From assembly GCA_045837725.1 (NCBI GenBank), contig JBEWZL010000156.1:62001-126000 (forward strand): 64,000 nucleotides of DNA. The letters are read 5' to 3'. This document shows, piece after piece, positions 3,505 to 63,174 of the stretch. A program made the position numbers and the translations under genes. A model generated the notes under the pieces. It saw only the letters and a list, made by a program, of their open reading frames with translations, searched no databases and had not been told where the DNA came from. Every line of letters starts with the position of its first letter. The first letter of the stretch is position 1. Source of the DNA: Vermamoeba vermiformis. Lineage: Eukaryota.

Positions 3505-6308
3505 ATGAATAGTTATAAAATACTATCGTTCTTTTGTATGCTTGTCCTTGCAGTGATCTTGCACGTTGCCGTTGCAGAAATTTTGGAAGATTCTGGTTAT
3601 CCAATGGCCGGTGCAAACCCTCAAAGAAATTATCAGTCTAATAGAAAGGTACGATAGTATAAATTTTTTTGGAGTTTAAAGGATGCTGCTTTAAATTTAG
3701 CAACAATATTTAAAAATTCGTTTTTAAACTTGTCCTTATTGCGACAGTACTTCGTACGCATAGTATCACAATGTATTAATGACACTGCATATTTATAATA
3801 TGCTGATTTTTTGTAGATTCTTTGTTCGGATGTTGCATCCGGAAGATCTCAAGTTTTAAACGTGGTGTGGACTTTTCCTCCAGATAATGCAGGCCTCTAT
3901 GTTAACACCAACAGCGAAGTAACAACAGACTCAAATGTAAGGCAACGACAGTAGATTTGCGCAAAATAATTTTTACTAAGTCTTAGTAATAATATTTTTT
4001 ATTAGGGTAATGTGTATGTTGTGGCCTTGGGTTTCGTTGATTCGACAAATTACATATTCAAGTTAAATGGAGTTGATGGGACCGTATTAAATAAGTAAGT
4101 ATACTTATAAAAATGATCTTTTTTAAAGTTTAATTTTAATGTACCGGATGTAGCGTTTCGACCATAGAGGACTTGTCAATCGCGTACATAACGATTGTCC
4201 AGGGCAACAAGTTTTATTACGCAACAGCGCAAAGTGCCTACACTGTTGATACGACGACAATGAGTTTTATCGGAGATCCGATCCCGATGCCTAATTATCC
4301 TTACCCTCAGTTCTCCTTCGCTCCTTATTTGGGCACTCATATGGTCACCAGTAATGAAGGCGTGTCTTCTACAACGATTTCAGACAATATTATGACTTAC
4401 ATCAAAGTCTCGGATCGAACAGTGGATTCGACAAAATTCAATTTTGTGGGTGGTGATCCGTCGCGTGTATTGATTTACAAAAATACTACGAATGAAATGC
4501 CGATTATTGTTAGTTACACTGGAAGTTATCCAGATTACATTACAATCGTCAAGTCCCCTCAATACGAGCACTCTTTTACCGGCGAATTAGCGGCTCTCGC
4601 TTGGATAGAAGGCGACTACTTGCAAATGTTTACAAAGGGAGCAGTGAACGCGAATTCACTTAAATTTTACGTCTTTCATGCGGTAAGTATTATAACCAAA
4701 AATGACCCGGCAAAGTTTTTTCGACGAATGAGTAGTGACTAACCGAAATTTCATTTAATAGGAAACTGGGGAGTCTCTCATAACAAAGGCTATCGATAAA
4801 TTCGGCGGCAGTTCGTTCAATCTTCAAGCTGGCATTTACGCGTTCAACAACAGATCCATCGCTCAAATCTACAATACTGGTGCTCTCAAGGTAAAGAAAT
4901 TTAAATTCAATGCGCTGATGGCACTAAAAGAGCGATTAACATAAATTGCCTTATTTAGACACAAGTCGTGGATTTGTTGAACAATCGAACATTACTTCCT
5001 GACTCAACTTACAATACTCTTCCTTCAGCCCCGATTTTTTCCAAACGTGAGTAATTAGACAAAAAATATCATCTTGTTGACTTTTTGTTGACCAGCTGAT
5101 AACACATTGTTGATGCACTCGGCGTTGGGGTTTGAACGCATTGATGTGATTGGATTAGATTGGGACACTTTAGAGATTAATACTAAAGGGTCTTTTCCGA
5201 GGGATAATGTCTTTTCTGATATTATTATAGTAAGTAATATTAAATGGTTGGTAGATCCACAAATTTTAAATTTTTAAATTCTTTTAGAGTCCACCTGTTA
5301 TCGGAGAGGATTGCCACGTGTACTCGACTTTAAACAACAAATTATTTGCCTTCGCACCGCTGCCTATTCAAAACATCGTTCCTATTCTCGAGTGCGTCAA
5401 TCAAAATGGCTTGGCGTACTTCTCGTACGACAATCTTGGTGACATTGACGCGGTCATTCCTCAATTCTCGGATCGAAATAACTTGTCGCCGCTGGTAAGG
5501 CTTGTCGGTCACTCATTCATGAACCTTTTTCCTCATCTTTTCCTTTTTTAGAATGTCGCTCCTGGCACCGACTTTGGAGCTAATCGACGAGGCAAATATT
5601 TTCCGTTGTCATTTAGAACCAACGTTGGTAACTCTGGCACGTTTACTTGGCAGTTAGAGGATTATGTTTTGAAATTCAACGTTAGTTCGAACCTTCTTTG
5701 CCCTCAGAGTACGTTCAAATTTAACTCGTCTCTATTAATCCTAACTCTATTCAGACGTCCGGTTTAAGATTGTCTTAACGGCTAATGGCAATTTCCCAAT
5801 CAGTTTCCGCGAATCAGTGCGTTTACTGTTCGCTTCAGTTGCAGGAATTAACGAGACTCGTGTGACATTTTTGACTGGCAAGCGATCCACGGAACAATCT
5901 CCGACAGAGCTTGAATTAGACTTGCAAGTTGCTCCTGATGAGACCCAGACCGAGTTATCGCCCGAAGAGGCTGTTCAAAAGTTTGCCGAGCAACAATTAA
6001 ATTCTTTTACTAATCAGCTTCCAACCCTTCCGGATGCACCCGCGGATGTGCTTACAAAAGGCAAGTCCTAGCGAGAACCAGTTCGATTTAACTAATTCTT
6101 TTTTCCTTAAGATGTCGATGGCATGCCACTTTCCACGGAGATCAGAGGAGTAATTCCGCCTCAGCCTCCTGGCACGACGCCGTTTGTTGAGCCAAATGCC
6201 CCATTGACGCCTCAAACGACTAACTCCCCAATTACAAAAACTTCATCATCGTATGTAATTAGCTTGTCTATTATCGCTTTATTGGCACCGATCGTTGCTT
6301 TGATTTAA
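3505..6308 (+). CDS. Surface-protein family copy 1 (signal peptide, beta-rich/propeller-like region, PIQN-PILEC module, stalk, GPI-type tail)
   Basis: MNSYKILSFFCMLVLAVILHVAVAEILEDSGYPMAGANPQRN, then PLPIQNIVPILECV, then TGKRSTEQ, ending SSSYVISLSIIALLAPIVALI*. GT-AG introns at positions shared with the paralogs. Confidence 0.85.
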
Positions 6309-8606: not shown

Positions 8607-9779
8607 TTATTTGCGTTTGTAAATAAAGTCCTTTGCGGCCCAAGTCTTTGTGTCAGTCAAGTTCGGATAAATTTTCTTGCAGTCAGCAATATCGGCGGTA
8701 AACCCGACGTCTTGCAAGAACTTGAACATGACTTTGGTGTCGGAATCGGAGATCCCTTCCAATGGCGTTTCTTCGAACTTGTCAGCGCCGAGGATCTTGG
8801 TGACTTCTGCTATCGTAGGATTGTCGCCGGCAATTTCGAGTGCCTTATTAGGCAAAATGTCTTTTTCAAAAGCTAGTGCGCCAAAAGCACCAATGTCGTC
8901 AACAGCGATGACTCGGAGACGATCTGTCGATCGCAAAGGTTGGCTGAAAATTCCGTCTTTGAGCTTGTCTGCGAAAAAGAAGTTGAAATTTTCCATGAAG
9001 AAAACAGGTCGAAGGATCGAGTAGTGCAAGCCGGATTCGCGCAGGTATTCTTCAGTAACCCACTTGCTGTCGAAAAGCGGCACGCCAGTCTTCTTATCAG
9101 CAGCTCCGACAGATGTGTAGACCAAGTGCTTCACTCTGGCGCGCTTGGCGGCGTCGATCGCATTTTTGCCTTGCTGGATCTCGCGCTCAGCACCGATACC
9201 CCAGTAGTTGACCACTAAATAGACACCATATGCACCTTTGAAGGCTGAATCCAGAGTGGCAACGTCTTCTAAGTCTCCCTTGACGAGCTTTACTCCTGTG
9301 AAAAAAAATGTGTAAATTTATGCATAAATTTCAGTTCAAACCCGAAAAGTCACGTGCAAAGAATAGAATTGACAGCTTCTTAATTTTAATCAAAAAATGA
9401 AATACGTACCTTTGCTTGCCCATGGTTTGGCTTTTTCTGACGACGGATCTCGAACGAGGGCGTGTACTAAACAATGTCAAGCAATTAGAACTTTGGCATG
9501 AATGAATGTTTTATATTCTTTGTACGTTATGCGACAACTTCTGTTTAATTCAATTATGTGGATCTTGCAAGGATTGATTTCGGGTTATCGGAGGTAATTC
9601 CAGAATTATTAATAAAATACGGAAAAGCTTACCTTCAAATTTGCCTCCTGATAACAAGTGACGAGCGGTAGCGCCACCTTGTTGACCAGTAATGCCAATG
9701 ACTACGACGATCTGTAGAAAATGAATTAGCAATCGGATCAAAGCGCTTAGATCTCGGAAAAACTTACAGGCTTGCTCAT
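8607..9779 (-). CDS. NmrA/HSCARG-family NAD(P)-binding protein
   Basis: MSKP|IVVVIGITGQQGGATARHLL, VHALVRDPSS, EIQQGKNAIDAAKRARVKHLVYTSV, FDSKWVTEEYL and LRPVFFMENF. Confidence 0.9.
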
Positions 9780-10335: not shown

Positions 10336-10850
10336 TTACAAAGTTAACGCCGCTTTTCCGATGAGAGTGCCACTCTGCACTTCCATATGTGCTTGTTTGA
10401 TGTCAGTCCACAATTGGTACGTCTTCATCAATCTGCTCTGGAACACGCCCGAGTCCAGCAGATCCGCCAACTTTTTCCTATACGGCAATCAGATCAGTGT
10501 TATATCCAATGAATATAACTGTAATGTAACGTGACTTACGGGCTCGGCGTTAAACAAAGGGCGACAGAACATGAATTCGTAGACCATCGAGCCGCGCTTG
10601 CTCATCAACGGCGCGATGTTGTGCGGCTGTTTCGCCTCGGTGATCAAACATACTTTGGATTGATCACTTGCACTGCTGCGTCGAAGTAATGATCTAGTAG
10701 CAATAGTAAGAGTCAGTTACTTTTTTTTGACACGTGTCAAAGTGTAACTTCGTACCAGTATCGGCGTAGGAGTAGGGACTCTCAAAAGATCTCTCGGTAC
10801 GTGAAAGCGGACATTTTGTTGCAAGGATTGCTACCTTTAAACCAGCGGTC
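10336..10850 (-). pseudogene. 5'-truncated remnant of a zinc-binding ADH-like/quinone oxidoreductase (MDR family)
   Basis: Three spliced fragments include HYFDAAVQVINPK, then a frameshift, then LITEAKQPHNIAPLMSKRGSMVYEFMFCRPLF and LADLLDSGVFQSRL...AHMEVQSGTLIGKAALTL*. These are typical of an MDR C-terminus. No N-terminal part was found. Confidence 0.6.
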
Positions 10851-10929
10851 CTAAATTAGTAAATTTATAAATATTTTACAGCACGTCTACAACGATTTAA
10901 CTTTACAATGAATAATTTAATAATTCTTA

Positions 10930-13900
10930 TTATGTCCTTGAGTCCACTTTGACTGACGCGGTATCCATCACTGAGGAGGTGCGTACGGATCCGTCGGTGG
11001 TGGAAGGTCCGTTTTGCCGTTGAGAATGGGCGCTGCTCGACATGCTGCCACCATTGACGAATCGGCGTTTTTCTGCTTCATACATGGCCTTTAATTCATC
11101 TTCAGAGCGACGAGTGACCAACCTGGTGAGCGGATGTGAGTAAGATATGAAAGGCCTAAATATGGCTTACCAGATCTTAGGAACAAACAACAAGCTCAGC
11201 GCAATACTTGTCGTGAATATTATAGCCAAACAAAGCACCAAAAAATTGGCCACAACGTTGGCAACGACGACCATCGGAATTAAAATCACGACCGCGACAA
11301 ACGCAAAATTGTAAATCTGAATAATATAGTGGTCAACGCATTGATTACAGCAACGTATCGTATTGAACTTACCGAGATAGCAATGTAGCGCGCTTCATTG
11401 AAGAAACTGTACGGGACATTGCGCGTCATGATGGCAACGATGACACCAGACAGCACCGTCAAGCCCTGAAGGTGAAATTAATTAGAATTATACTCGAAAC
11501 ACTCGTGCTGATAGTCTACCTTGTAACCAATGATAACATATAGAATGGGTGGGAAGAAATAACATTGGGCGTAATTGTCAAACGTGTCGCCAGGGTTCTG
11601 AATCCACTGAATGCTGATCGGATACAGAGCTTGTAACAGCACCAATAGAACCTATTCATATTTATATGTTAGCGAGGTCTTATCCGGGAGGTGATTGTTA
11701 CGTACGACGTCGATTGACAAGAACACAGCCATTGCTTTGCCAAGGTCGTTGTTCGTCCAGACCTTGAGCAACAGATTTTTCTTGAAAATGCGATGAACAC
11801 GAATCGTCTTTACGAATAAGCTCCTGCAGTCCGCCACATAATTAGCAGGAGAAGCAGCGTAACGATAAAGCAAGTCTACATACACAAATAGCAACGAAAA
11901 TCCGATCGAGAGCAACCAGATGAAGAGCGAGCACGTCTGATTGACAACATTAGTAATGCATCATCAATGCTGAAAATGTATATTAAACGTACGACAGTGG
12001 AGTGGTCAAGCGAGTACATGATGACAGACACGTAAATGAAGATGATGCCCACGAGCATTACCAACATGAACAACACGGTGGCACTCTTCATCACAACTGA
12101 CTCGCGTCTGACAAGTGTTAGTTAATATATTAAGCAATGCGCGGTCATTGCGTTGACGTACTTGTACAGCACTATCCCGCCTACAGCAAGCGTAAGAGCC
12201 ACGAGCGCAGCAGCAATAACGAGCATTGGAAGTGTGAAGTTGTTGGTGATGTACAAGTAAGCAGGGCCTCACATAGCTGTCAGAATAATTGACAAGAAAG
12301 AGAGACGACTTACTTCTCTCGTTGCCCGTGCAAATGTACGCCGTGCTGCTCGCGCCAGGACAGCTCGCACTTCGCAAACACCAGCTGAAGTTCGACGCAC
12401 CGAAATTACTCACGCGCAGTGTTGAACCTGCCGCTTGTAATTCAGCCACGACTTCTGACATCAGTGTCATGCTGAGATGAATTTATTAACGTGTCTTGCC
12501 TAATAAGGGAAAAAAAACACTTACTCGTACGTATCGCTGTAATTTCCTGGAGGAATAATACCAGCCTTGCTCAATACATTAACGGTATTCGCCCACTTCG
12601 AGCTGTTCATCAGGCCAAAAGTCTCATCTGTGGTCCTGTCGATACATTATTAGTATTTCATGAAAAATAATAATCGATCCGGATCAAAATACCAGATCAG
12701 CTTGTTGACTTCATTCATCATCCACCGCTGATAATCATTGCCACTCCAAATCAAGTTGACACAATCTTCCATATAATCGCGGCAATGCATCCAACCTCGC
12801 GTCATTGCTCTAATGCCATAATTAGATCTGGATCGATTTTCAATTGTGTTCGTTATAAAATACCTTAAAAATCGCTTGGCAATATCTTGGTTTGCAGTGT
12901 TGTTGAGCCAAGCACGTGATACGAATAAACTGTCTTGTAACGTAGCAGTGCCTAAGTGATGAAGTTAGGTATATTTAAACAGTACGCAAGCTGCCCGATC
13001 CATCAATTACAAAAATGGAAATTCGGAACTTGAACAAAATTTCCGTTTTCGGCCGAATTAGTCTCGATACCGATAAATTTAATGATTTCACATCGTTGAA
13101 GAAGAAGATTATTTACCGGAAATGATATCAAAGGTAAGTTTCGACATAAATCGAACAGATAATACACGGATCAAAATACGTACCGAGATCTTCGAAGCTA
13201 AAAATAGTGAAATTATCGAGTTTGTACAATTGCGTAGCATTGGGCTCGATGTATCCTAATAACTGTGGAAGCTCGTTGTATGTCGTGGCCATGACCTGCA
13301 TTCAATCGTCAACGTAATAAACAACTTGAATAAATCATAAATTTAAAGTAAATTGGCTTGGGATCCGTTCTCTAGAGAACACAAGCCAGGTTTGGTTCTT
13401 AATTCGGAAATTTTAAAATTACAGTACTTACGCAATCTGATCTACCTTGGAGCAAGCCTAAAGGACTGAAATTTTGCGAGATGCGGTTGATGTCGGTGTC
13501 GATGTTTATTCCTTCTTTAATAAGGGCCGCTCGGAACTCTAAAAACGATGTCAAACAATGGTACTGCCCCTCAAATATCAAATGTTTTCAGAAGCACGTT
13601 TCTAAGCCAAAATGAATCTGAAATCCATCGCGATCCTTACCTTCATCCAAATTGTCCCACATAGCCACTGTTTTACCTTTTAAATCTCTAAGAGTTTTTA
13701 TATCTTCGTCTGCGCGCGCAACCGCGAGAGTCGCGCTACGTTGAAAAACCTATTTGAAGAAAAGTGTAAATTGCTTGATCTGACAATCGCAGATTCACAA
13801 TTTCGTATATGTATCTGTCTAGGACTGTCTATCTATATCATTCGTATTGTACGTACCTGAGAAATGATGACAATGTCTGATCCCGCCAGTTTCGATTTCA

Positions 13901-14492
13901 AACTGACTTGAGACCAAGCAACGCCAAATTGAGCAATGTCTTTAATCACCTAGTCAAATATTAATTTAATATTATTACGTTATTTAAAACGGGATTTATG
14001 GAGCAGGATCCGATCGGTTCGGAGTTTCCAAAAATTGCTTCAATACTTTAAATCGAAGCGGAACCCCCGCAGCAAATGATTCAAACTTCCATGAGCAACG
14101 CTAAGCTTACCCATTCGGCAGAATCCACTCCTGGTCCACCTGACAAAACAACCACATTCAAGCACTCGTCGGTAAAATAACCTAATTCTTGTGCAATGAC
14201 ATATCCTGTTAACAAAAATAAATTAAGCATTCATTTTCCTACAGTATTGGACCAGATTTAAAATCAATTTACAAATATTCGGTAACCAGTCGATGATGAA
14301 TGACTGTAATCGAGTCACTGATTCCTTATTGAAAATAAACGATAAGGTACCTGCAAACTGTGCTTGTAAGACCCATTGCAATTGAATTCGAACGCTGTCA
14401 AAGCTTGTACAGTTCTTCTGTCCTGCGACAGATCCAGCGCAGGAACTTAAGACTAAACCAATTAGTAGTATGACGCAGTACCGAGAATACAT
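10930..14492 (-). CDS. Class C (GABA-B-like) GPCR with an N-terminal NMT1/THI5-like substrate-binding domain; one in-frame TGA
   Basis: Signal peptide MYSRYCVILLIGLVLSSCAG. Ectodomain motifs VRIQLQWVLQAQFAGYVIAQELGYF, LRDLKGKTVA, ATTYNELPQLL and YQRWMMNEVNKLIW. 7TM motifs VVMKSATVLF, LFVKTIRVHRIF, FNEARYIAISIYN and LLFVPKI. About 17 exons splice in frame. Confidence 0.85.
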
Positions 14493-15754
14493 CCTCGTGT
14501 GGTCTCTGTATTCCGACAAATAGCTTGTTTGACATGTCGGGTCCGTGGGTTTAAAATATGACATTTCCAAATTTAGACTGCCTATATTTGGAGAAAAGTA
14601 CGATGGAAAACAAAAAGAGCTCGTATATGCTCAGTTACTGATACTTATATGCCATAGAGGTGTTCTAAATACCCGAAAGAAGTGTGGGTTCGGTAAACGT
14701 ATCGTGCCAACCAGCCACATCCACGAGTGCCTAAAATAAATTTCGTTTAATTGTTAAAATTTATAATAAATATTCTTAATGCAATGAATAAACTAATGCC
14801 GTTGTTATTATAATGCTAACGACTTTGTAGTCCAAATAATAATAAAATCAAAATCGATCTAAAGCTGATTCGACTTACCAAAACGTGCAACTCCAAGACT
14901 ACAAATACGAATGATATTCATGGACGAATTTATAATTATTCTACAGTTGCAATGTTGATTTGACCGATCTAGATCACATTACGAACTAGATTCAATATTT
15001 GCTTGCGTAAATCAATAATAAATGGTCATTGTGCGCGGTAAATACTGTTGCTAACCAACAGGTGGTGGCCTGCCTGAAAACAAAACAATAAAATTAACTT
15101 GCTTTGAATTGCAAGCTCCGCTAAAGAGAAACAGAAGTTCATTTTTCAGACCAAAATCCTTCTTAAGCATTATTACATCGTTTATTAACAAATGCGAGGA
15201 TTAAACATAGCCTCTACGTCCAAGTAAGTGTCAAGTCGCTAGTTTAAAATATTAATTAATTTTAAAATATTAGCCAAACGCATTCTCCGGCTTTAATAGC
15301 CAAATTAGATATCCCATACATTAGGCTTAATATTGAAATTATTTTTAGATTTAATTTGGTTCGCGAACCATAGCAAAAATTTGGTGTGCAACCCGGATGT
15401 GACGAGTTTAACAAATACGATTGATGAGCTGTGCCTTCATACGTTGGACGAATAACTCGAATGTTCTATGAACGGTTGACTATCAGACGTCTCGACTTCG
15501 AGACAGACAGAAGAAAGGATTTGCCACGAAGATCCGGATCTAACTAACAACTCCGGATTAAAATGCCAGATCAACATAGATTGATAGATCCAAGGTATTA
15601 ATATCAGTTTCTCTTCTCCCAAGGAATTTCTCGTCGGACTTCGGGAACTGCTGCATTAATCTAAATTTGGAATCGTTCGGTAACGAAAATTTTTCTAACA
15701 CATTCTTTTTTATTTATTTAAGATCTTTACATCACCACTAAGGGGAACATCTGC

Positions 15755-18471
15755 ATGAGTGCCAGAACGCTTTTAATAGCAATCTTTGGCTTTTGGATTT
15801 GCTCCACCGTAGTTGTAGCAGAGGTTCTTGCAAACTCTGGCTATCCTATGCTAGGAGGAAATCCTGAAAGAAACTATAAAATCGATCGATCGGTTAGTAA
15901 CGGCTTTAAATCGATGAAATATAAATTATATAATTTTTCCGAAATTAACCGTTATTTTGAAGGTCCTTCGGCAAATGAGTCCTTAAATTAACATCCCTGT
16001 TTAATAGGTGCTTTGCCCACAAGTAGCTCCGGGCCGAACAACCGTACTGAGTGCTGATTGGTTTTTTCCTCCACAGCAATTCGCTGGTACATTTCAGATC
16101 ACCTCCACACAACTTACTCTGGATGAAAACGTACGTTCTCCGACATTTCTCCGATTTTTTAATTTATTTTTTAGGGTTTTTTGTACGTGGCTGGATCGTA
16201 CAACGAGGTGAGCATCAGTATTTTCAAAGTGAACGCAACCGATGGAAGCTATAATGCTCAGGATACAGGGTACGAAGTAAAGTAAATATTTTTTAATAGG
16301 TCTCATTTTAATATTGCAGGTTTACGTTGCCGGGTTCTTCGGATCAAGATGCGCATCCAACGCACGTTAAGAACAACAAATTTTACTTGGCTCCAGATGG
16401 GCAATCTGTAATCGTAGATACTACTACTATGCTAGCTATCGCCACAACAGAGAACCCTAACCCTTCTGCTATTGTGGGACCTTCATCCTTTGCACCGTAC
16501 GGAACCACCTTGATGGTCAAGTCCAACACCGGTGTTGACGTCGGCAACTCTTTGACGTACATTGATGCGTCAGGCAACGTGAATATTAACGCTCCTAATG
16601 CTAATGTTGGCTATGAATCGTTGCCAGTCTTAGTTTGGACGTCCGGATCTGGTACCACCCCCGTGTTGGTCAATCCAAGCGCCAGTCCCACGAATGTGTT
16701 CACTAAGGATTGGACTAAATCTTTTCCTGGCAATGCAAGAAAGGCTTGGCTTGATGGTGATTACTTGTTCTATTTGAGTAACTATCCATCGTCGGCACTG
16801 ATCCGCATTAACATGGTACGAGCCCAAAACAATCTTTCATGGTAACGCAGTACTAACGACCTTAACTATTATAGACTGATAATACTGATGTTGTTAGTAC
16901 CGACATTAGTACTTTCCAAGGTAACTCATATACGTGGGATTTTACAACTCTCAGATCTATTTACCACAACAACGTTCTATTCACACAAATTACTGGTCAA
17001 GTACGTATACACATGAATCGCATTGAACTTAGCACTAAAGATAATGTTAGAACGGAGACCTGCAATTTGTTGATTTACTCGGAGGAACTGTCGTCCCGCA
17101 ACCAGGGCCACAATCTACTCTAGTATCGCATCCGATCTTCCTGAAAAGTAAGAAGCACACTGCTAATACGCTACGATTTCACTAACGGTAAATGATTACA
17201 TTTTAGGGGACAACACGGTACTGATGTACACGCACACGTATGACACGGGCATTTTGCAAATGAAAGGTCTTGAATGGGGTACCTGGAAAACAAAAATGGT
17301 GGCTCAGTTCAACGGATCTTATGTGTACGATAATAACTACGTAAGTCACACATCTAACTCTAATATCAACGAGGTCTAACGAAAATGTAGGGCATCCCTA
17401 TCGTTGGTGAAAATTGCCGCATGTACACTATTCTTAACGACAGAGTTTACTCTTTTGCACCATTGCCTATTCAAAATCTCGTGCCGACATTACAATGCGT
17501 GGATTTGGCGACTAACGAAGCGTACTTCTCGTACAATTACTTGGGAGCTGGTTCGAAGGACTTTGTTATCCCTCACGTCGCTGATCGAAACGAACTAACC
17601 CCTGAAGTACGTGTGAATTCTCTACAGGCTGGTTTTTGCGGACAACGGAACTAATTCTGTTGGCTTTAGGGCCTCGCACCATTGACTGACTTCACTGCTG
17701 GAGAAGGACCGTTGTACCCGTTATCGCACAAAGTCCTTTTGAATACCAACGCTAGCACGCACACGTGGATTTTGGAAGACTACACTTTGACGTTCGCTGT
17801 TGGCTCGTCACTGGCCTGCCCGACAAGTAGGTTACAGTACTAGTTTTCACGTAGTATACGAGCTTATACTGATACCTTCTATTAGCGGCAACGATCACGA
17901 TTAGATTGACAGCAAATGCACCTTTCCCTCAAGGCTTCCAAGAGACCGTTCGAAAAGCGTTCGTTATGCTGACAGGTGTCACTGACAGCCGTGTGACAGT
18001 AGTCGCCAGAAAGCGCTCAGTAGCTCAATCAGACACTTTAGAGACGGAACTTCAAGTCGCTCCTGGTACGATCTGAACGTGCAAAATGCGCAGATCTGAC
18101 ATTTTTTTCAGATCCTTCCGGAAGTGAGCCTTCGTCTTCCGATGTCGTTAGAAACTTCGTAAATAATGAACAAGAGTCATTTTCAGTCCTAGTAGCTAAT
18201 TCTGATGGCGCTCCAGCTGGCGTCAAAGTTGACTGTACGTAACTCAGATCTGGATCTCTTGACTTATGTTTCTAATATTCTTTTAGCCATTACTGGAAAA
18301 AAGACTGACACTGAAGTACAAGGAGTATTGCCACCTCAAGCTCCTCCTGTGAGTCCTCCGACTGCTCCGGTACCTGCACCAACACCAATAGCAGTCAAAA
18401 GCGTGACTTCGAGTGTCAAGGCCAGCGTAACATTAATTATTGCAACTGTTTTGTATTCAATTCTTAATTAA
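15755..18471 (+). CDS. Surface-protein family copy 2
   Basis: MSARTLLIAIFGFWICSTVVVAEVLANSGYPMLGGNPERN, PLPIQNLVPTLQCVD and ARKRSVAQ, followed by a Pro-rich linker and hydrophobic C-terminus. Confidence 0.85.
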
Positions 18472-18723: not shown

Positions 18724-21389
18724 ATGAAGCGCATAGTTTTCACTATAATTGTTGCGTGCCTGGTTGGCTGGATGCACGCTGCAGTTACTTTAGCAGACTC
18801 GGGTTATCCAATGTCAGGTGCAAATCCTCAGCGCAATTATAAATCCAACAGACCTGTAAGTACCTTCTGTCCATCGATCTCTTTTTAATGCAGACAAAGA
18901 ATTTCAATAACTTTACGAATGTAACAGGACAAGATCCTAGCTTTTTAATGATTGTTAAATATTTAAATAATTAAACTTTTTAGTTCTGACGGTTAATTTT
19001 TCAGATTCGTTGCGCATCTGTTTCCAACGGCAAAACGACTGTTTTGAATGTAATTCATAGCTTTCCGAATCTCCCTGCAACATTTTATCCACACACTGTG
19101 GGAAGAGAGGTCTCTTTAGACGATAAGGTATACAATCTATTTTTATTGGATTTGGTAATTTTGACACTTTATTTTCAGGGATGGGCGTATATTTTAGCTA
19201 CTTACAATTCATGGAATACTATCTTTAGATTCAATACTACAGATGGTTCCTATAGCGTTACAGATAAGTAAGTTTCGGCAAAATTAAATTTATTTATCGG
19301 ATCTTGTAACTTTTCATTTCAAGCCATTCGACAGGACTCGATGATCCAAGGCTTACCCTGCTGGCAGGAGGCGTGTTATATTATTCCGGAGCTTCTACGA
19401 CCAATAGACTTGACACATCAAATTTCAACATCCAGGTCAACTTTACCGACCCAGCAACTTTCGGAGCTCAGACTTCTATGGCTCCGTTCAATAACGAGTG
19501 GATGGTCAAATCGATGTATCAGACTAACCTCATTGGTGATGTGATCATGTACTTCAAAGACGCTACTTCCAGCATTGACACGACCCTCGCGAACATCACT
19601 GGAGACTTCACCGGCACGAGCATTAGAGACGTCTTAGTGTACAAATCTACGACTTCATCAGTGGAATTTCCTGTTGTGGCTGGGTACGCCATGTCCGTAG
19701 GAGGCACTACAATCATTGCGTCGCCGAGCTACACTGTCGGCTTGCCCAATGCATACGCGAAGAACGTCATGATCGTAGGCGATGAAATTTTAGTCTCACA
19801 TTATGCGAACGCTTATGGAGCTGGATTCTACAAGCTCGATGCGGTAAGTCAAAGAGTTTAACGGAGAAAAGTATTGACTTTCAATATAGGCAACTGGAGC
19901 GGTCACGCTAAACCAGACTTATGCTACATGGAACGGAAATGCATTCATTTTGTACTCTCCGCTTATGTATCATAACGGAAAGGCGTTTGCTCATCTTATC
20001 TCGAGCTCTGGAGTAAGACATGTCGTTCTAAGTACTTCCTTTCCTAACTTGATGATGTTAGATACACTTTGTGGACCTAGTTAGCGGTCAAACTTTGGCT
20101 TCTTCGACAACCTTCCGTGCACTTGATCGAAACTTCGCCTTTTCTAACGGTAAGAATTAGACCTATCATACAGTAACTCCATAAGCATGCCAGTATTAAT
20201 TGGCGTTATATAGTTGACCAGACTGTGCTGTCATTGGGATACAACCTTAATAGCCAATACTTTGAAATCATGGGATTTGAGTGGGACACGTGGAAAGTCA
20301 ACGTTCGCGCCAGACTGCCCACTGACTACAACGCAGATGTATCTTACGTAAGTGAACCTATTAGCATCTATAATTACATATCTGACGTATTCTAGGGCAC
20401 TGTTGTGATTGGCGACAATTGCAGGGTTCACGTAGGCATTGCGCAACGGTTCCATACCTTAGCACCTTTGCCCCTTCAAAACGTTGTTCCAATTCTCGAG
20501 TGCGTTGATCGCAACACGAGAATAGGATACTTCACTTACAACAATACTGGCTCTCTTGCATTCTCCATCCCGCAAGTCGATGACAGGAATAACCTTTCGC
20601 CAATCGTAAGTGACTCGATGATTATAGTAAATCAGTTCTAACCTCATGCTTGTAACTTAGAACGTGGCACCCATTGAAGTCTTCTCAGTGGGTCTCGGTT
20701 CGAACTTCCCATTCTCTTCACAAGTGCTGCTGAATACAAGTGACTCGTACACTTGGGTGCTTGAAGACTACGTGCTATCATTCACAATCACCCCTGCTCT
20801 CTATTGTCCCGAGTGTAAGTCTCAAGCACACTCCATTTAAGTATGACACTAATTGTCGCAGCGATTTCTTTCGGAATTCTCTTGACCGCCAATGGTACAT
20901 TCCCTGCTGGTTTCGATCTTCTCGTACGTGACGCCTTCGTCAATGTGACTGGCATCAGCGGCAGTCGTGTGATGATAGTGGCCAAGAAACGAGCGGTAGA
21001 GCAACAACAGACCAGCCTCGAAACAGATCTTAACGTCGCTCCTGGTAAGTTGATCAATGTGCCTTCATACGTTCAATGCTAACTGGTCCCTCACAACAGA
21101 TCCGACCAATCAAGAGCCAGACCCAGCGCAAGTTGTGCAACAATTCCAGAATCAACAAACTGAATTCAATCAACAACTTCAAAATCAACCAGGAGCACCG
21201 AGTGGTATTCAAACTAGTCTTTCCGGCAAACAACAGCCAACCGCTGTGCAAGGCCAGATCCCGCCTCAACCGGTTGCACCGCCAACGAGTACTTCGGAGC
21301 CAGTAGTCACTAACCCCACCTCTGCGGCTAATGCCTTGCAAGTAGTATCGAGCATTATCACTCTGGTAACTGTTATGTTTGTGTTTTAA
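18724..21389 (+). CDS. Surface-protein family copy 3
   Basis: MKRIVFTIIVACLVGWMHAAVTLADSGYPMSGANPQRN, PLPLQNVVPILECVD and AKKRAVEQ, ending SAANALQVVSSIITLVTVMFVF*. Confidence 0.85.
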
Positions 21390-22280: not shown

Positions 22281-24749
22281 ATGTCATATCTACCTGCTTT
22301 ATTGGGCCACATGTGGTGCCCAAGCGCAAGTGACATTGAGGCCTATGCGATCTCTGCCGACGAGTTGGCAGCACAAGTAAAACAACAACAAGAGCGCATT
22401 GAACACTTGAAGCATTGTATTGAGGATCGAAATCACTTTGATTCTCTTGCGCGACCTGATGGCTCTGGAGGTAATAACAGTTGACATAAAACAAATATAA
22501 ATTATTTTTGATCGTAGTAAGGATAGGTAATAATAATAACATTCAGTGATTTTAGAATTAATACATATATTCGCAAAAAAATGGACCATTTTTTTTTCTT
22601 TAAATTAACCGGATCTTTCAAAGTTTCTGGGGTTAAAATCGTGTGTGACACGGCTGGAGTTCTTCATTTTATGGATACGACATCATGGCCATATCACTAT
22701 CCATTTTGTGTGACATTTCTTAACGAACAGAGGTGGGTTCAATTCCGAATTGTATACTTCGGAATTCTAGATTCGGTCGCTAACTTTTCTTGTTAGAACT
22801 TTGGAAGTCTTCAACGAGCAAGTATATACTGGAAAAGATCGATCGATGATGTTTGCTACTATTGTCGCATACCCGAATGGTGACAAGGATAAATATTATT
22901 GCTTGGAGTTCAATCCGGCAGATCCGATGGTTCCTGGTCTCGACAAGATCAACGAGTTCTTTACTCTCGTTAAAAATGCATTTATGGGCTCGCAGCAAGT
23001 CTTGTACTTCCACCCTACCTCTGCAGCTCAGATCGAGACTATTCGAGGCAAACAACTCTTCCTACCCGTGATCCAATCATCGCAGCTCTTTGGGGATATT
23101 CCGTACAAAGTAGTGCAGCCTGGACAAGTTAAAAACAAAGTCGTGGCTATCTTCAACAAGGAGAACTACACCCAAGAAGAGTTGCAAACATGGCTCAATA
23201 TCCGCTCCGCTGAAGACATTGTAGTTATTCCGTCAGTCCCAAACGACATTCCAGCTGTCGGTGGCATCATCTGCAACGAAATTATCCCGCCTTTGTGTCA
23301 TGTGGCATTGTTGTGTCAGAATCGCAAGACACCGTGCTGTTATCGTAAAGATGCCACCACGCAGTTCTTGAAAGCCGAAATGGACAATTTGGTAGTCAGC
23401 GGAACGATAGCGAGTGTTGGATTCGCTCTTGACGGCAAAAGTAGAGGGTCCAAAGCCGAGCCAGACTCCGTGCAACCTATAACTGTTGAGGCCGTCGACA
23501 CGAAGACCGCAGAGTTGATCGATCTGAACTCACTCAAGGCCTCTGATGCACATGTGGTTGGTGCAAAAGCGGCACAGTTAGCCAAAGTCGATGCAGTCTA
23601 CGGTCAACGAGTTTTCAAGGGAACATTCACAGTGCCGTTCCATCACTACAACAAGCACGTGAACGATAACCAATCACTTCTTAAAGAGAGTTTGCATCCT
23701 ATTCTCAGCAAATTGGGCACTGTCACCAGCGCAAGTGCAAGATCCCCGAATTCGACTAAAGGCAACAACTTCGACTACAATAGGTTCTCTACTTTCGTGG
23801 ACAAAATCATTGCTGCACCTGTGGACAACGAGCTCGTGCAAAGTGTGATCGAAAGAGTCGTTCAAAACAAATGGAACGCAGTCATCTTACGCAGTTCGAC
23901 GAACGCAGAAGATCTCACTGGCTTCAACGGAGCTGGCTTGTACGAGTCTGTAGTGCTGAGAGGAGATGACACGACTAACCCTGAGAAGGTTGGTCACGCA
24001 CTGAAGACAGTGTGGGCAAGTGTGTGGTGTCCCAAGTAAGTCCCTTCCTTATATACCATGCGAGAAAGTACTAATCTCTTGACTATCAAGAGCTGTCAAA
24101 GAGCGACAATACTACAAGATGGATCATCACAAGGTACAGATGGCAGTGCTTGTACAGCCATGCATATGCGACAAGTCAACAGACGTGCAAGTGCTCATGA
24201 ACGGTGTGTGCATCACCCACGATACCTCTCGACACAAAGTCAAACACGGCTTCGTGGTTCACACGTAAGGCAACAAAGTTCAGTGCATAGTTCGAGTATC
24301 TAACCTCGTTATTAAGGTTCCCTGGAAGTGAATACAAAGTGACCAATCACTACAAAGACACCACGCCAGAAAGTGTCACGTTGTTTTTGAACCGTCAGAA
24401 AGACTCTATCGACATGCAACTGTACTCATTGTGCAACAAGAGTACGGGTCCGTTACTGACTCAATCTGATGCTGTGAAGATGGTCGAAGTGTTTGGCAAG
24501 CTTCACAACATGATCTTGGGTTCACATCACTCGATGCACAACACGACCGCCCTGGACATTGAGTTCATGATTGTCGACAACAAGGCGACGAAGATTGATC
24601 GTGACTTGGTGGTACTTCAAGCACGACCGTATCAAGTGAATGTGGCGCCAGAGGGTGTTTACTACGACGGTGAAGTCCAAATTTTTCTGATGCACTACAA
24701 CCGTCATATTTCCATGGGACCTTGTGTCGTTTCCTTCTGTTATAACTAA
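22281..24749 (+). CDS. Bacterial-type PEP/pyruvate-binding (PPDK_N ATP-grasp) dikinase-like protein, at least 5 exons; 3' end may extend to ~24832
   Basis: His-swivel-like PPLCHVALLCQNRKTP precedes ATP-grasp motifs VGAKAAQLAKV, LRSSTNAEDLTGFNGAGLYES, ALKTVWASVW, MAVLVQ, LDIEF and VVLQARP. GT-AG introns are present. Confidence 0.85.
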
Positions 24750-27286: not shown

Positions 27287-29987
27287 ATGAAGCCTTTAGT
27301 TGTTTTGCTAATTCTATTCGGAGTCGTCGGTTGGATCACCGCCACGATTACTCTAGCTAACTCTGGCTATCCAATGCCTGGAGCAAATCCTCAACGTAAT
27401 TCCAAAGTAGACAAACCGGTAGGTCATACGACAATTAGCAATTGTTGAATTGTGGGTATTTTTTAATTTTAATTTTCGAAGATCTTAAAAAAATATTCTG
27501 TTCTCCATTGTCATTTGAGAAATTGCAACCTTTAAATGTATATTTTTTAATGGCCCAGAAAAAATTAATTTGCCTTCAGGTTCGTTGCTCTGCGGTTTCA
27601 AATGGCAAGACAACGGTCTTAAACGTAATTTGGCGCTTCCCTTCAGACCCGAATAGCTCTATGCAGGTCCAGCAGAGCTCATACGACCTTATTCAGGATA
27701 GCAAGGTATGAAAATTAAGTCTAATCCGCATCTTACCTTTCTTAAAAATAGGGGGTCGGTTACGTTCTGATCTATGATTCAGGCCCTAAAATATTCAAAG
27801 TTAATACATCGGATGGCACATATGATCCATTGTTGTAGTATGTACTTAGCCAATTTAGGATCGCATCCGATCTCACGTTTTGTTAGCTTCGTTCCCGAAG
27901 AACAGCCTCTGCTAACAATGCTTGAAGAGAACAAGTTCTATTTTTCTGGAACTTCTTCAACAAATGTCATCAACACCATCACCCTGGCCCAAACTATAAG
28001 TTACAGCGATCCGTTCAGCTTTGGTGTGGTACCCATGGTACCGTACAAAAATGATTGGCTGGTCAAAGTCAGACCTGCGACCGACCTCGCGAGAACAGAT
28101 GCCCTACTGTACTTCCAAGATTCAACTTCTGTGCCTGACGCCCAGCAGCCAAACATCAACGGTGACTTCACCGGCACGACCATCAAGCCCGAAGTGTTGG
28201 TGTACAAATCAACCACAAGCTCCACGGAATTTCCCGTCATTGTTGCGGGACCTACCGAACTCGGTGGCTCTTCTATCGTGGCGTCTCCAACGTACTTCAA
28301 AACTTTGAATGTTAATATCTTTAACCACCAGATTGTTGACGATGAGGTCATCTTGATGCATCAATCGTCAGTCAGTGGTGCTGGTGGATTACTCAAACTC
28401 GACGCCGTAAGTAGTTTAAGCAAGTCATGGGATTTGGCAAACGGTCTCGTGAAATTTCATTGAAAACTAACTTGATAGCAGGTCACTGGAGCCATTACGT
28501 TGAACAAAACTTATACCGATTTGAACGGCCAGACTTTCTATATGAACGCCAACTCGTTGATCTATCACAACGGTAAAGCGTTAACTCATGTCTACAGCAA
28601 CAATCAGGTAAGAGAAGCGAATGATATAATTATAACTTCTCGCTTAATGTTTCGCCAATTAGGCATATTTCATGGAGTTAGTGACCGGCCAATTGATCCC
28701 TACAAACGACTTCATTCCTGAAAACCGCATGTTAACTTTTTCTAACGGTACGTACTACATGTTGCCTGACATGACATATACTAATAACATCATATATAGT
28801 TGATCAAACGGCGTTGTTATTGGGAACGTCTGCAAGATCGAGATACTTCGAGATTACGGGACGGGATTGGAGCACGTTCAAAGTCAACGTTCGCGCTCGC
28901 CTTCCCGATGGCGGATCCGACGCGACTTATGTACGTTAATAGTACTTGAGACTAATAGTATCACAGTGGTATTAACGGTCTATAATCTTAATTAGGGAAG
29001 TGTCGTGCTTGGCGACAATTGCCGAGTTCACGTTAGCATCAACCACGTGCTTTATACTTTGGCGCCAATGCCCATTCAAAACGTTGTTCCAATTCTCGAG
29101 TGTGTTGATCGCAACACGAGAATAGGATACTTCACTTACAACAATACTGGCTCTCTTGCCTTCTCCATCCCACAAGTTGATGACAGAAACAATCTTTCAC
29201 CAATCGTAAGTGATTCGATGTAGTCAATGCAGTTCTAATCTTATGGTTGTGACCTAGAACGTGGCACCAGTTGAAGTCTTCTCAGTGGGTCTTGGTCCGA
29301 ACTTCCCATTCTCTTCGCAAGTACTGCTGAATGCAAGTGACTCGTACACTTGGGTGCTTGAAGACTACGTGCTAACATTCACAATCACCCCTGATCTCTA
29401 CTGTCCCGAGTGTAAGTCCTGCTGACAACATGTACATCATGAAATTGATGATGATGACGGAGCATTTTGTAGCGATCAACATTGTGATCACCTTGACGGG
29501 AGACAGTCCATTCCCTGCTGGCTTCAATCTCATTGTACGAGATACATTCGTCAACGTGACTGGCATCAGCGGCAGTCGTGTCACATTGGTCACGCAGAAA
29601 CGATCCATCGAGCAACAACAGAGCACATTAGAAACTGAACTTGAGATCGCTCCTGGTGAGTAACAACAATAAATATATTTAGCCGCGGCGTCTCATCGTA
29701 GAACAGATCCAAACAATAAAGAACCTACACCAGCGCAAGTAGTCCAAGACTTCACGCAATCACAACAATACACATTCCAGCAGCAAATTCAACAACAAGA
29801 AGGAGCACCAGCAAATATTGATGTTGGTCTCTCTGGCAAGACCCAATCATCTGCTGTTCAAGGTGAAATTCCACCTGAACCAGTCGCAACACCAATGACG
29901 GTGCCAATAACTCAAAAGACCTCACCTGCCAGTGTTGTGCAAGTTGTTTGGTGTCTTATCCTAGCTCTCCTATTGGCAAGTTATTAA
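27287..29987 (+). CDS. Surface-protein family copy 5
   Basis: MKPLVVLLILFGVVGWITATITLANSGYPMPGANPQRN, PMPIQNVVPILECVD and TQKRSIEQ, ending VVWCLILALLLASY*. Confidence 0.85.
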
Positions 29988-38550: not shown

Positions 38551-39484
38551 TCACCTTTCTTCAATGCTGTTCTCGCACTCTTGATATCTCTCGCACGCTT
38601 CACATCGCGGCAATTTGCACCGGTAACAGTCACCTCCTGTCTGTTCATCGCATTAGAGCAGGTAGTGAAGGTTAATGTTTAAGAAGCTTACCGTGCCCAT
38701 TTCGTCACAATGTTCGCACTGCACAACACACTCTTTGCAGTGGTTTGTTTCGTAACCGCCATCCACCGGACGTGGATACCGCGCCTTGACCTCACAGTCC
38801 AAACAAAAACTTTCCTCACAAGATTCGCATTCGAAAGCTTGGAATGGCGTTTCCTTTTTGCAAACCTTGCATTCGTATATCGAATAATAAAGTTTCCATT
38901 TCAGTTCCGTTCCGTAATTCTTGGTGCAATTTTCACAGCTTACGAAAATATCTTCGTTTTCTGGTGTGAAATTTTTGAGCTTGGTCTCGCATACAGGGCA
39001 CTGCACGCTCTTAAATTTCGGTTTCTTGTTATTAGAGCTAACGTATGTACAGCTGAATATCTTCATTCTGGAAAAGCAGGTAAGAAAAGATGGCTGGAGC
39101 TCGAGATCGACTCGTTTTCCGAGAATTTCATGGTGATAGGACTTACTTCGTATAGAATGGCACAAATTTTTCGTTTGGCATATCTTTCATGTGTTTTTGA
39201 TAGAATTGAGGCCACATGGATGAACTAATTGAATGCCAGATCTTGACAATCATTGCGTTGATGGATTTTGATGCTAATCGCAATTGCCGTTGCTCCTTCA
39301 ATGCAATTTTCATATCATATTCTCCTAATGGCATGTCGGTGCCAAGGATTGTTTGCCAAATTTCAACGGGCAGATCTGGAAGGACTTTCGAATAATTGAA
39401 GTTAGATTAATCTATTTATGGAAATAAAAGCGAAATATTTTTTGTTTAATAAATTATGTTTTTTTGTTCCATACCTTGATCCAT
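38551..39484 (-). CDS. F-box-like protein with CxxC zinc-finger repeats, duplicate A (acidic tail lost by frameshift)
   Basis: MDQ|VLPDLPVEIWQTIL...LRLASKSINAMI, followed by CPVC, CENC, CKVC, CESC, CLDC, CKEC and CEHC. Confidence 0.65.
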
Positions 39485-39874: not shown

Positions 39875-40866
39875 CTAATCCGATGGTTCTTCATCACTGC
39901 CACTACGATCACTATCCTCACCACTTTCTTCAATGCTGTTCTCGCACTCTTGATATGTCTCGCACACTTCACATTGCGGCAATTTGCACCGGTCACACTC
40001 GCCTTCCGTCTGTTCAGAAAAAAGACTGCTTTTAGCAACAGATTGTAATGGTTAAAGTTCAAGGAGGCTTACGGTGCCCATTTCCCCGTCACAATGATCG
40101 CACTCCTCGACACACTCTTTGCAGTACTTTCTGGCGTAATTGCCATCCACGGGACCTAGATATTGAACCTCCTCCGCGCAGCTCCAACAAAAACTTTCAT
40201 TGCAAGCTTCGCATTCGAAAGCTTGGAATGGCGTTTCCTTCTTGCAAACCTTGCATTCGTATATCGAATAATAAAGTTTCCATTTCAGTTCCGTTCCGTA
40301 ATTCTTGGTGCAATTTTCACAGCTTACGAAAATATCTTCGTTTTCAAGCGTTAAATTTTTGAGCTTGGTCTTGCATACAGGGCACTTCACGCTCTTAAAC
40401 TTCGGTTTCTCGTCACTACAGCTGACGTACGTACAGCTAAATATCTTCATTCTGGTAATGCAGGTGAGAAAGATTGATGGAGATCGAGATCGACTCGTTT
40501 TCCGAGAATTTCATGGCGATAGGACTTACTTCGTATAGAATGGCACAAACTTTTCGTTTGGCATATCTTTCATTTGTTTTTGATAGAATTGAGGCCACAT
40601 GGATGAACTAATTGAATGCCAGATCTTAACAATCATTGCGTTGATTGATTTTGATGCTAATCGCAATTGCCGTTGCTCCTTCAATGCAATTTTCATATCA
40701 TATTCTCCTAATGGTATGTCGGTGCCAAGGATTGTTTGCCAAATTTCAACGGGCAGATCTGGAAGGACTTTCGAATAATTAAAGTTAATCTCATTTATGC
40801 GGAAAATAAAAGCGAGTATTTTTAGTTTAATAAATCAAGTTTTTTGTTCTCCTTACCTAGATCCAT
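39875..40866 (-). CDS. F-box-like protein with CxxC zinc-finger repeats, duplicate B
   Basis: Near-identical to duplicate A within a ~1.3-kb tandem unit (~38440-39727 vs ~39808-41116). Ends ENSIEESGEDSDRSGSDEEPSD*. Confidence 0.7.
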
Positions 40867-62753: not shown

Positions 62754-63174
62754 GTGTATGAGTTATTACCGCCTGGTACCATAAGAAGTTCGAAGTAATC
62801 ACACTCAATAAGCAGCGTGATCCGAAGTCAGATCCTGCGCTAAAAAGAGTTCGTTAAACAAAACCTGGGTAGAGGTGGGACCAGTAGCACACAAATGTCA
62901 GTATTGACGTTAGCCAATGTTTACGAAAGGTAAGGGACATTTGTTTGCTTTACGCAGGGAAATTAATTTTAAACGCTTTCTGATTGGTCGGTGGTAAAAA
63001 TAGTGAAAAGTTCCATTCCTGTGTTTGTACGTACGAGAAACTATAAAATGTCAAGTTAGTTTGTCGAGTAATTCACTAAAACATCTGATAAGGAACAACA
63101 CGTGGCTTACCTATACACTAAAGTTTCAAGTCAGACCTAAATCCGATCAACAATCAATTCCACTTCATTCAACA

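Follow-up and report, generated by a model that had tools for sequence, protein, structure and literature searches.

The window analyzed here is a 64,000-nt stretch of Vermamoeba vermiformis DNA, eukaryotic in character, with many short introns and a base composition of 34–45% G+C. On its minus strand, at 10930..14492, it carries a gene whose product, judged from sequence comparison, is a signal peptide followed by a complete NMT1/THI5-type (type II) binding-protein head, a short cysteine-bearing stalk and the seven-transmembrane domain (7TM) of a class C receptor. The original prediction for this locus had proposed the same arrangement (signal peptide, complete NMT1/THI5-like domain, short Cys-rich linker, GABA-B-like 7TM), and it was confirmed by the gene model, the Pfam matches, the match to GABA-B2 and the modelled fold.

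Gene structure, transcript and fold of the receptor

The gene model was assembled from exon coordinates, with the minus strand of 10800-14700 read in three frames. It comprises 18 exons (695 codons plus stop) and 17 introns of 46–232 nt, all 17 with GT..AG ends, and it is collinear with the orthologue P0003 and supported by spliced contigs. The start (ATG at 14492) and the stop (TAA at 10932-10930) agree with those given in the original prediction, and the coding sequence of 2088 nt yields an open product of 695 aa. The in-frame open reading frame (ORF) at 12650-12964, used as query, retrieved three proteins of 555–696 aa (67% identical), each with PF09084 and PF00003; the orthologue P0003 has 696 aa and is found on a 2145-base contig. 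Residues 1-695 of P0003 were matched in order on the model exons (tblastn against the window), with 74% identity between model and orthologue across 690 aligned positions and no indels at the junctions, while a second receptor copy was not found in the 64-kb window by tblastn with P0003. All seven motifs quoted in the original prediction are present in the spliced product, and its splicing was right at two of them, QAQFAG-Y and FNEARYIAIS-IYN, because these motifs span exon junctions.

The sensor head and the 7TM belong to one spliced gene and one transcript, since a contig from a public run (X1 record 1; 2187 bases, at least 99% alike) spans exons 18 through 3 as a single molecule, in line with the single spliced product originally proposed and not with two transcripts. 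This contig covers 10936-14041 and removes 15 listed introns at the model coordinates, with CT..AC ends on the plus strand that correspond to GT..AG on the minus strand. The short X9 contigs reproduce 8 of the 15 listed joints, and between them the X1 and X9 contigs lack 15 or more of the 17 introns, cut out at the model coordinates. Exons 9-10-11-12, where the binding domain meets the 7TM, are crossed by X1 record 1, and neither a stop codon nor an intergenic gap lies between the two domains in the gene model or the contigs. The raw RNA runs X13 and X15 gave one and three partly fitting reads, respectively, in exon 10 only, and nothing was concluded from them. The many introns and the ordinary base composition speak for a long residence of the receptor gene in the eukaryote.

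Along the minus strand, the 5' untranslated stretch (14493..14662) is covered by X9 record 8, which spans 14350-14662 and ends in sequencing adapter; together with two small X1 contigs, this record covers exon 1 and the 170 bases upstream of it. Exon 1 (14351..14492, residues 1-47) encodes the signal peptide (about residues 1-24, hydrophobic at 1-19), Cys28 (identified by its alignment column), the first strand and the QAQFAG motif, and exon 2 (14111..14205, residues 48-79; NMT1 profile 7-35) encodes helix 1, Cys62 and the GGPG loop, a predicted dimer contact (interface residues 68-86 of P0003). Exon 3 (13857..13949, residues 80-110; gene model, contigs and tblastn) belongs to lobe 1 of the binding domain and is followed by exon 4 with DLKGKTV (13641..13749, residues 111-146; NMT1 profile 69-100, E 1.4e-5), exon 5 (13432..13538, residues 147-182; joint 13538/13641 in X1 and X9), exon 6 with the TYNE motif (13184..13295, residues 183-219; gene model, contigs and tblastn) and exon 7 (12864..12951, residues 220-248), where the preceding intron of 232 nt is skipped in the X1 contig. 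Exon 8 (12693..12809, residues 249-287; gene model, sequence search and alignment) holds the Cys258/Cys265 pair and the QRWMMNEVNKLIW motif common to the bacterial relatives, and exon 9 (12525..12635, residues 288-324; gene model and contigs) the C-terminal helices of the binding protein. In exon 10 (12314..12471, residues 325-377; both flanking joints in X1 and X9) the binding protein ends at about residue 345 and the stalk follows with Cys356, Cys362 and Cys372.

The 7TM starts in exon 11 (12162..12267, residues 378-412; gene model, hydropathy and joints in X1) with the first transmembrane segment (TM1), and exon 12 (11993..12107, residues 413-451; 7tm_3 profile 34-69) encodes TM2. TM3 starts in exon 13 with Cys453 (11884..11936, residues 452-468; gene model and contigs) and ends in exon 14 at KTIRVHRIF, ahead of TM4 (11706..11823, residues 469-508; 7tm_3 profile 89-131). 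Exon 15 (11520..11651, residues 509-552; gene model, with a beta-hairpin loop in the P0003 model) contains extracellular loop 2 with Cys538 and TM5; exon 16 (11373..11465, residues 553-583; 7tm_3 profile 174-203, E 2.5e-5) runs from TM5 to the loop before TM6 (FNEARYIAIS), and exon 17 (11171..11316, residues 584-632; 7tm_3 profile 204-251) covers TM6-TM7 with LFVPKIW. The cytoplasmic tail and the stop are encoded by exon 18 (10930..11122, residues 633-695; gene model), where the tail of the P0003 model is of low confidence, with a predicted local distance difference test score (pLDDT) below 50.

The whole-protein Pfam cut-offs are 20.5 bits for NMT1 (PF09084) and 33.5 bits for 7tm_3 (PF00003). 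Scanned exon by exon (16 pieces), the gene gave collinear NMT1 matches on exons 2 and 4 and 7tm_3 matches on four pieces; exon 4 alone clears the NMT1 cut-off (25.6 bits), and each 7tm_3 piece alone stays below its own. In P0003, NMT1 was matched at residues 46-262 (E 1e-28, 101.2 bits, profile positions 2-211 of 216) and 7tm_3 at residues 391-633 (E 5.6e-45, 154.4 bits, profile positions 8-251 of 251), a region where the receptor model and P0003 are 77% identical. The original prediction had named an ANF_receptor ectodomain as the outcome that would speak against it, and the head turned out to be NMT1: no Pfam match to ANF_receptor, the type I Venus-flytrap domain, was found in P0003 at E 0.01, nor was the nine-cysteine domain NCD3G matched there. 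Among solved sequences, GABA-B2 is the closest match of the 7TM (E 2e-23), and a crude hydropathy scan of the receptor gave six segments plus the signal peptide.

P0003 was modelled with AlphaFold from a 63-row alignment (mean pLDDT 89.5, predicted template modelling score 0.74), resulting in a two-lobed head (pLDDT > 90), seven helices, a beta-hairpin in the second extracellular loop and a short, three-stranded stalk with pLDDT < 50 at residues 364-367. In Foldseek searches with this model, the fold neighbours of the head were the thiamin-bound 4nmy (target template modelling score 0.81), ThiY (3ix1, 0.80) and Thi5 (4esx, 0.83), which belong to the same Pfam family as the head but differ from it in identity (14–20%) and in the first-lobe motif; no thiamine context was found for the receptor head as set out below, and THI5 is an enzyme. 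The GABA-B subunits and GPR156 were the best matches of the 7TM in both sequence and fold, and they likewise have a short stalk in place of NCD3G and keep the cysteines in TM3 and extracellular loop 2. The receptor departs from GABA-B in its head, which is a type II NMT1/THI5 fold and not ANF_receptor, and its 7TM is at most 29% identical to ANF-bearing receptors.

The receptor head carries eight N-x-S/T sequons, and the cysteines of the product lie at residues 28, 62, 182, 258, 265, 356, 362, 372, 453 and 538. Cys453 (top of TM3) and Cys538 (extracellular loop 2) correspond to Cys455 and Cys541 of P0003, invariant in a four-protein alignment; in class C receptors, the cysteines at these two places form a disulfide. 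Two cysteine pairs are also present in near bacterial relatives, Cys28/62 in 16 of 50 aligned rows and Cys258/265 in 43–44 of the 50; they would have arrived with the captured protein, and the only additions are the three stalk cysteines.

A dimer is predicted for this receptor. When two copies of head plus stalk (P0003 residues 25-385) were folded together, three runs scored 0.46, 0.54 and 0.46 against 0.00 for the best control; among proteins solved as pairs, 20 of 30 attain the mark used, against 1 of 23 among those solved as single chains (17/29 and 0/30, respectively, for eukaryotes). At least 81% of the contacts are common to the runs, with a partner pLDDT of at least 89, and the predicted interface is symmetric, formed by loop and helix residues 68-86 of lobe 1 and by the stalk, with Cys364 opposite Cys364 (P0003 numbering). 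The modelling lends support to a putative self-association of the receptor head.

Relatives, reuse and descent of the head

Among the 120 proteins listed by a search with P0003, six have both NMT1 and 7tm_3; the remaining 114 have a bacterial length (382–468 aa), carry NMT1 alone and are 36–45% identical to P0003, their named sources including Actinobacteria, Acidimicrobiia, Nanopelagicales and Vitreimonas. One listed protein, P0105, has a precomputed PF02502 domain. A profile of four fused proteins was then compared with 1.84 billion representatives, giving 24058 matches at E 0.001, and 54 of the 150 matches listed were scanned with Pfam. The NMT1 plus 7tm_3 architecture, which the original prediction had proposed to look for beyond this locus, does recur, in at least 11 full-length proteins (P0003, P0009-P0011, P0131, P0132, P0133, P0135, P0136, P0138 and P0146), and is not unique to the window. 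In four further proteins (P0157, P0169, P0174 and P0200) the profile match runs from within the head through the 7TM, and Pfam at E 1e-5 assigns 7tm_3 only. In the Atlas, P0003 lies closest to stramenopile clusters, namely 7tm_3 families from diatoms (0.81) and from oomycetes (0.79), which as a hint to a stramenopile, perhaps oomycete-like, host is a lead only.

Other outputs, too, are found behind this head. Among the matches listed, it precedes Guanylate_cyc in at least three proteins (P0141, P0158 and P0180), a kinase plus cyclase in at least one (P0181) and PDEase_I in at least four (P0145, P0165, P0197 and P0214, the last with additional WD40 repeats and possibly a merged gene model), while in P0144, P0147, P0154, P0258 and P0259 it is followed by C-terminal parts without an assigned family. 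By hydropathy scan, the cyclase and kinase-cyclase forms have a single transmembrane segment after the head, in the phosphodiesterase forms P0145 and P0197 one segment directly follows the head and another hydrophobic stretch comes later, and P0144 and P0154 have four to five membrane segments. Because it is found ahead of several different signalling outputs, the NMT1-type head is, by its domain company, a modular extracellular sensor in some eukaryotes. The ANF_receptor module, known also from natriuretic peptide receptors, is likewise one head on 7TM and on single-pass cyclases; the NMT1-type head follows this pattern and adds phosphodiesterases, but its fold class and origin differ, so that the parallel is one of logic and not of descent. 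Fusions were also seen on what is presumably the bacterial side of the same NMT1 subfamily, to a Gly_transporter membrane domain in P0216 and to SBP_bac_3, PAS and a histidine kinase in P0264.

The closest free-standing relatives are NMT1-type binding proteins of the bacterial NitT/TauT family from Gaiellaceae, other Actinomycetota and Chloroflexota, which are 37–45% identical over the whole mature protein and have the signature motifs and the two Cys pairs in common with the receptor head. They differ from it in being free lipoproteins or secreted proteins that feed an ATP-binding cassette (ABC) importer, without stalk and 7TM, and their ligand is inferred from neighbouring genes; in the receptor, the head is fused to the 7TM and does not serve an importer.

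A tree places the receptor heads among these bacterial proteins. In a quick tree of 95 heads, the eukaryote-type rows formed one clade (26 rows; support of 96 in the Shimodaira-Hasegawa-like approximate likelihood ratio test, SH-aLRT) amid bacterial proteins. A more careful tree (66 rows, mixture model, rooted on 8 distant bacterial rows) likewise has the eukaryotic heads nested, with successive bacterial groups branching off at supports of 100/95, 99/85 and 91/93; here the 26 eukaryote-type heads are split into one group of 22 rows (91/85) and another of 4 (100/100), at an open fork with 19 bacterial rows. A single clade of all 26 was present in 24% of the bootstrap trees and is not rejected by the approximately unbiased (AU) test (p-AU 0.516), the constrained tree being better by 0.24 log units. 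Since the tree has two groups and a single clade nevertheless passes the AU test, we infer one capture, at most two, of a binding protein of the bacterial NitT/TauT group by eukaryotes. The ectodomain phylogeny and the identities of 37–45% thus bear out the capture from bacteria that had been proposed for the head. In the head alignment, no position was found at which the whole eukaryotic clade departs uniformly from the bacterial consensus, and the evolution of the head is best described, from the aligned residues, as retention with relaxation.

The receptor of this window lies within a clade of 8 rows (97/96) in the careful head tree, all of them with 7tm_3. In the larger head group the outputs are interleaved (for instance, the 7tm_3 protein P0011 groups with cyclase forms at 97/91), which suggests that the head moved between outputs. 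In a quick 7TM tree of 41 rows, the NMT1-headed receptors are scattered, and their label requires seven changes, at least two of them forced by well-supported branches; head and 7TM may therefore not have stayed together. A word-based search with the 7TM alone returned just six ANF-type receptors (23–29% identity) and did not name a sister group.

Class C receptors with type II heads are already in print, and the idea that such a combination would be unheard of does not hold: OpuAC, PBP_like_2, SBP_bac_1, LysR_substrate and TctC fusions are described in the available parts of the literature. Heads of the LysR_substrate, PBP_like_2, OpuAC and SBP_bac_1 types were reported on fungal class C receptors (Krishnan et al. 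2012, in the part available); PBP_like_2, TctC, Peripla_BP, OpuAC, Bmp and others are drawn on 7tm_3 in a supplementary figure of de Mendoza et al. 2014, as far as it is legible; sugar-type type II heads were found on about half of gut-fungal class C receptors, with repeated fusions proposed (Seppala et al. 2016, in the part available); and diverse heads on non-metazoan class C receptors are covered by the accessible sections of a 2025 eLife survey. These non-metazoan receptors have the same design as the one described here, a domain of the Pfam clan PBP before 7tm_3, but NMT1 is not among the heads listed in the parts available, and in the present case both the sister groups among bacteria and the operons in which they lie could be identified. 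The word NMT1 does not occur in the main texts of Krishnan et al. 2012, de Mendoza et al. 2014 and Seppala et al. 2016, nor in the text and one supplementary file of the 2025 eLife survey; in the legible lines of the supplementary figures of de Mendoza et al. 2014 (two lines are illegible) it appears only as Ank_2//NMT1//RGS. No published NMT1 plus 7tm_3 (PF09084 plus PF00003) architecture was found in the literature, and NMT1 together with ANF_receptor was met only in work on bacterial binding proteins. As far as searched, the kind of receptor is thus already known; what is apparently absent from print is the NMT1-type head, together with its donor context and its further use on cyclases and phosphodiesterases.

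Candidate ligand and competing explanations

The retention of the bacterial signature was scored at 59 positions, each conserved to 80% or more among 50 near bacterial relatives; the receptor head keeps 49 of these positions and other family members 28–51. In a species-genome scan, 583 bacterial relatives were found, the best 80 of which come from Gaiellaceae, other Actinomycetota and Chloroflexota. Neighbouring genes were viewed at 35 loci, where 56 of 81 and 67 of 128 ORFs were examined and some genes were thus missed. Of the 10 loci viewed upstream, 8 have permease and ATPase genes ahead of the binding-protein gene (permease-ATPase-permease-binding-protein operons). An Amidohydro_1 gene was seen in the vicinity, mostly directly downstream, at 12 of 35 loci, and a class III aminotransferase, an aldehyde dehydrogenase and a luciferase-like oxidoreductase at 8, 5 and 11 of 35 loci, respectively; 24 of the 35 have one or more of these four. 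When compared with NCBIfam models, all five amidohydrolases tested are dihydropyrimidinases (TIGR02033, 581–614 bits, with 393 as the cut-off), the single aldehyde dehydrogenase tested matches methylmalonate-semialdehyde dehydrogenase (TIGR01722, 726 against 448) and both oxidoreductases tested match TIGR03842, while no NCBIfam model was found for the bacterial binding proteins or P0003 at E 1e-10. Dihydropyrimidinase, a beta-alanine-type aminotransferase and methylmalonate-semialdehyde dehydrogenase are steps of the reductive breakdown of uracil and thymine. A thiamine pyrophosphate (TPP) riboswitch was found in none of nine bacterial loci and not in the window, and no thiamine gene was seen beside the near bacterial relatives among the ORFs examined at the 35 loci. 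At three of these loci (L009, L030 and L064, from Gaiellaceae or Actinomycetes), a Guanylate_cyc plus AAA_16 regulator is encoded on the opposite strand, about 1.5–2.3 kb downstream of the gene for the binding protein; this vicinity of the same head and a cyclase is probably a coincidence.

Because dihydropyrimidinase adjoins the closest bacterial relatives at some of these loci and no TPP riboswitch was found in those searched, a pyrimidine or cyclic-ureide ligand is favoured, with modest confidence, over thiamine precursors, and the ligand may lie among pyrimidine-like rings. More narrowly, a free pyrimidine or cyclic ureide (uracil, thymine, a dihydropyrimidine or a hydantoin-like compound) is predicted, tentatively and with less than even confidence. 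Of the ligands first put forward, pyrimidines therefore remain the best guess, and the link to thiamine precursors is not supported.

Taken together, we hold with moderate confidence that the gene encodes a cell-surface, GABA-B-like class C receptor with a whole NMT1/THI5-type head of bacterial origin, this reading including the capture, the dimer and a pyrimidine ligand. A binding protein of the bacterial NitT/TauT group would have been captured and then wired to the class C 7TM, to cyclases and to phosphodiesterases; the receptor would act as a symmetric dimer, as modelled, in which a small molecule closes the two lobes of the head and this movement is transmitted through the short Cys stalk to the 7TM, which may then activate a G protein by analogy with GABA-B. 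Pyrimidine sensing would let the cell detect bacteria or decaying matter. A bolder version is doubtful: that one bacterial pyrimidine or cyclic-ureide binding protein, captured by a protist lineage, gave rise to a receptor superfamily acting on G proteins and on cyclic-nucleotide synthesis and breakdown, with the member in this window being a G-protein-coupled receptor for free uracil, thymine and dihydropyrimidines that smells bacteria or decaying cells.

Several points weigh against the receptor reading or parts of it. The ligand, the G-protein coupling and the dimer are predictions, and the dimer score may owe something to solved Thi5 dimers. The operons considered belong to bacterial proteins that share only about 40% identity with the receptor head, the dihydropyrimidinase-type neighbour is present in 12 of 35 loci and not in all, and the structurally closest solved proteins bind thiamin or a thiamine-precursor pyrimidine. 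The receptor differs from its bacterial relatives at 10 of the 59 conserved positions and, because some family members keep as few as 28, ligand specificities probably differ between them. The 7TM tree is unresolved, with long branches and many open forks. On the side of the transcript, X1 and X9 are classed as RNA by an index guess only; the exact intron removal in these contigs is a cDNA signature. In addition, X1 record 1 is without exons 1-2, and enters intron 2 for 92 bases (13950-14041) before joining 14675, with three unmatched letters between, a form that is possibly an alternative 5' end or exon, or else an assembly error or chimera.

Three other explanations were considered against the pyrimidine-sensing receptor. 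Sensing of thiamine, hydroxymethylpyrimidine or another thiamine-precursor pyrimidine, in the way of ThiY-type proteins, is suggested by the top structural matches (thiamin-bound 4nmy_A, E 2.2e-15; ThiY 3ix1_A, which binds a formylaminopyrimidine (FAMP), E 6.4e-15), by the bacterial relative P0004, which matches 4nmy (5.8e-17), THI5 and ThiY by sequence, and by the available part of a review, where solved NMT1 proteins are described as thiamine and aminopyrimidine binders. We consider it unlikely, as the identity to the 4nmy and 3ix1 structures is only 16–20% and the far closer bacterial relatives adjoin dihydropyrimidinase, aminotransferase and semialdehyde dehydrogenase, with neither thiamine genes nor TPP riboswitches seen; moreover, the first-lobe motif aligns as W-T-P-N-T-N-H-T-G in 4nmy and as W-V-A-Q-A-Q-F-A-G in the receptor-head subfamily. 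It is rather improbable that the head has lost small-molecule binding and now acts as a cap, structural or dimerising, on a 7TM that is constitutive or gated in some other way, or that it binds a macromolecule instead. Relaxation of the head would fit such a role (of 27 columns at least 90% conserved in bacteria, 14 show an unchanged residue in 80% or more of the eukaryotic rows), and orphan class C receptors without ligand-binding heads exist (GPR158, according to the part of the source available); yet the receptor of this window retains 49 of the 59 signature positions, the whole mature binding protein is kept and modelled at pLDDT > 90, and the occurrence of the same head on four kinds of signalling output is what would be expected of a sensor module. 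An annotation artefact, with adjacent genes for a secreted binding protein and a 7TM receptor misread as one, has next to no probability: the exon-wise Pfam scores are weak singly and the long X1 contig lacks the first two exons, but the domain boundary is crossed by spliced sequence without stop or gap, and P0003, on its short contig, and at least ten more full-length proteins have the same domain order. Two separate genes are rejected on the strength of the spliced X1 contig across that boundary.

Class C receptors are the classic example of how a bacterial binding protein became a sensor of eukaryotes, and the NMT1-headed receptor would add a further, well-dated case, in which the donor group can be named and the operon context read, giving a concrete and cheap ligand panel. 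The occurrence of one head on 7TM, cyclase, kinase-cyclase and phosphodiesterase implies that this head has been a plug-in sensor for eukaryotes, much as the ANF_receptor module has been for animals. Should a pyrimidine prove to be the ligand, the receptor would be a first candidate eukaryotic surface receptor for free nucleobases of that kind, and a compact type II scaffold for engineered biosensors.

Other genes of the window

Much of the window appears to be filled by a lineage-specific gene family of seven dispersed ORFs of 175–242 aa, mutually 22–45% identical, at 4140-4742(+), 16312-16845(+), 19310-19861(+), 27771-28463(+), 42891-43418(-), 48152-48820(-) and 53753-54481(-); no Pfam family was found for the three of them that were scanned. 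Two adjacent cysteine-rich ORFs, 38653-39186(-) and 40052-40510(-), are 72% identical across 151 residues, with no Pfam match in the one scanned, and seem to have arisen by a recent tandem duplication of a gene for a zinc-ribbon-like protein. Other long ORFs are those of a UvrD-type helicase (55916-57184(+), E 2.8e-34), a PPDK_N protein (22771-24039(+)), an NBR1-like protein with PB1 and Ig-like domains (63007-63954(+)) and an NmrA-like protein (8607-9317(-)); the nearest Atlas cluster of the NBR1-like gene is from oomycetes (0.89).

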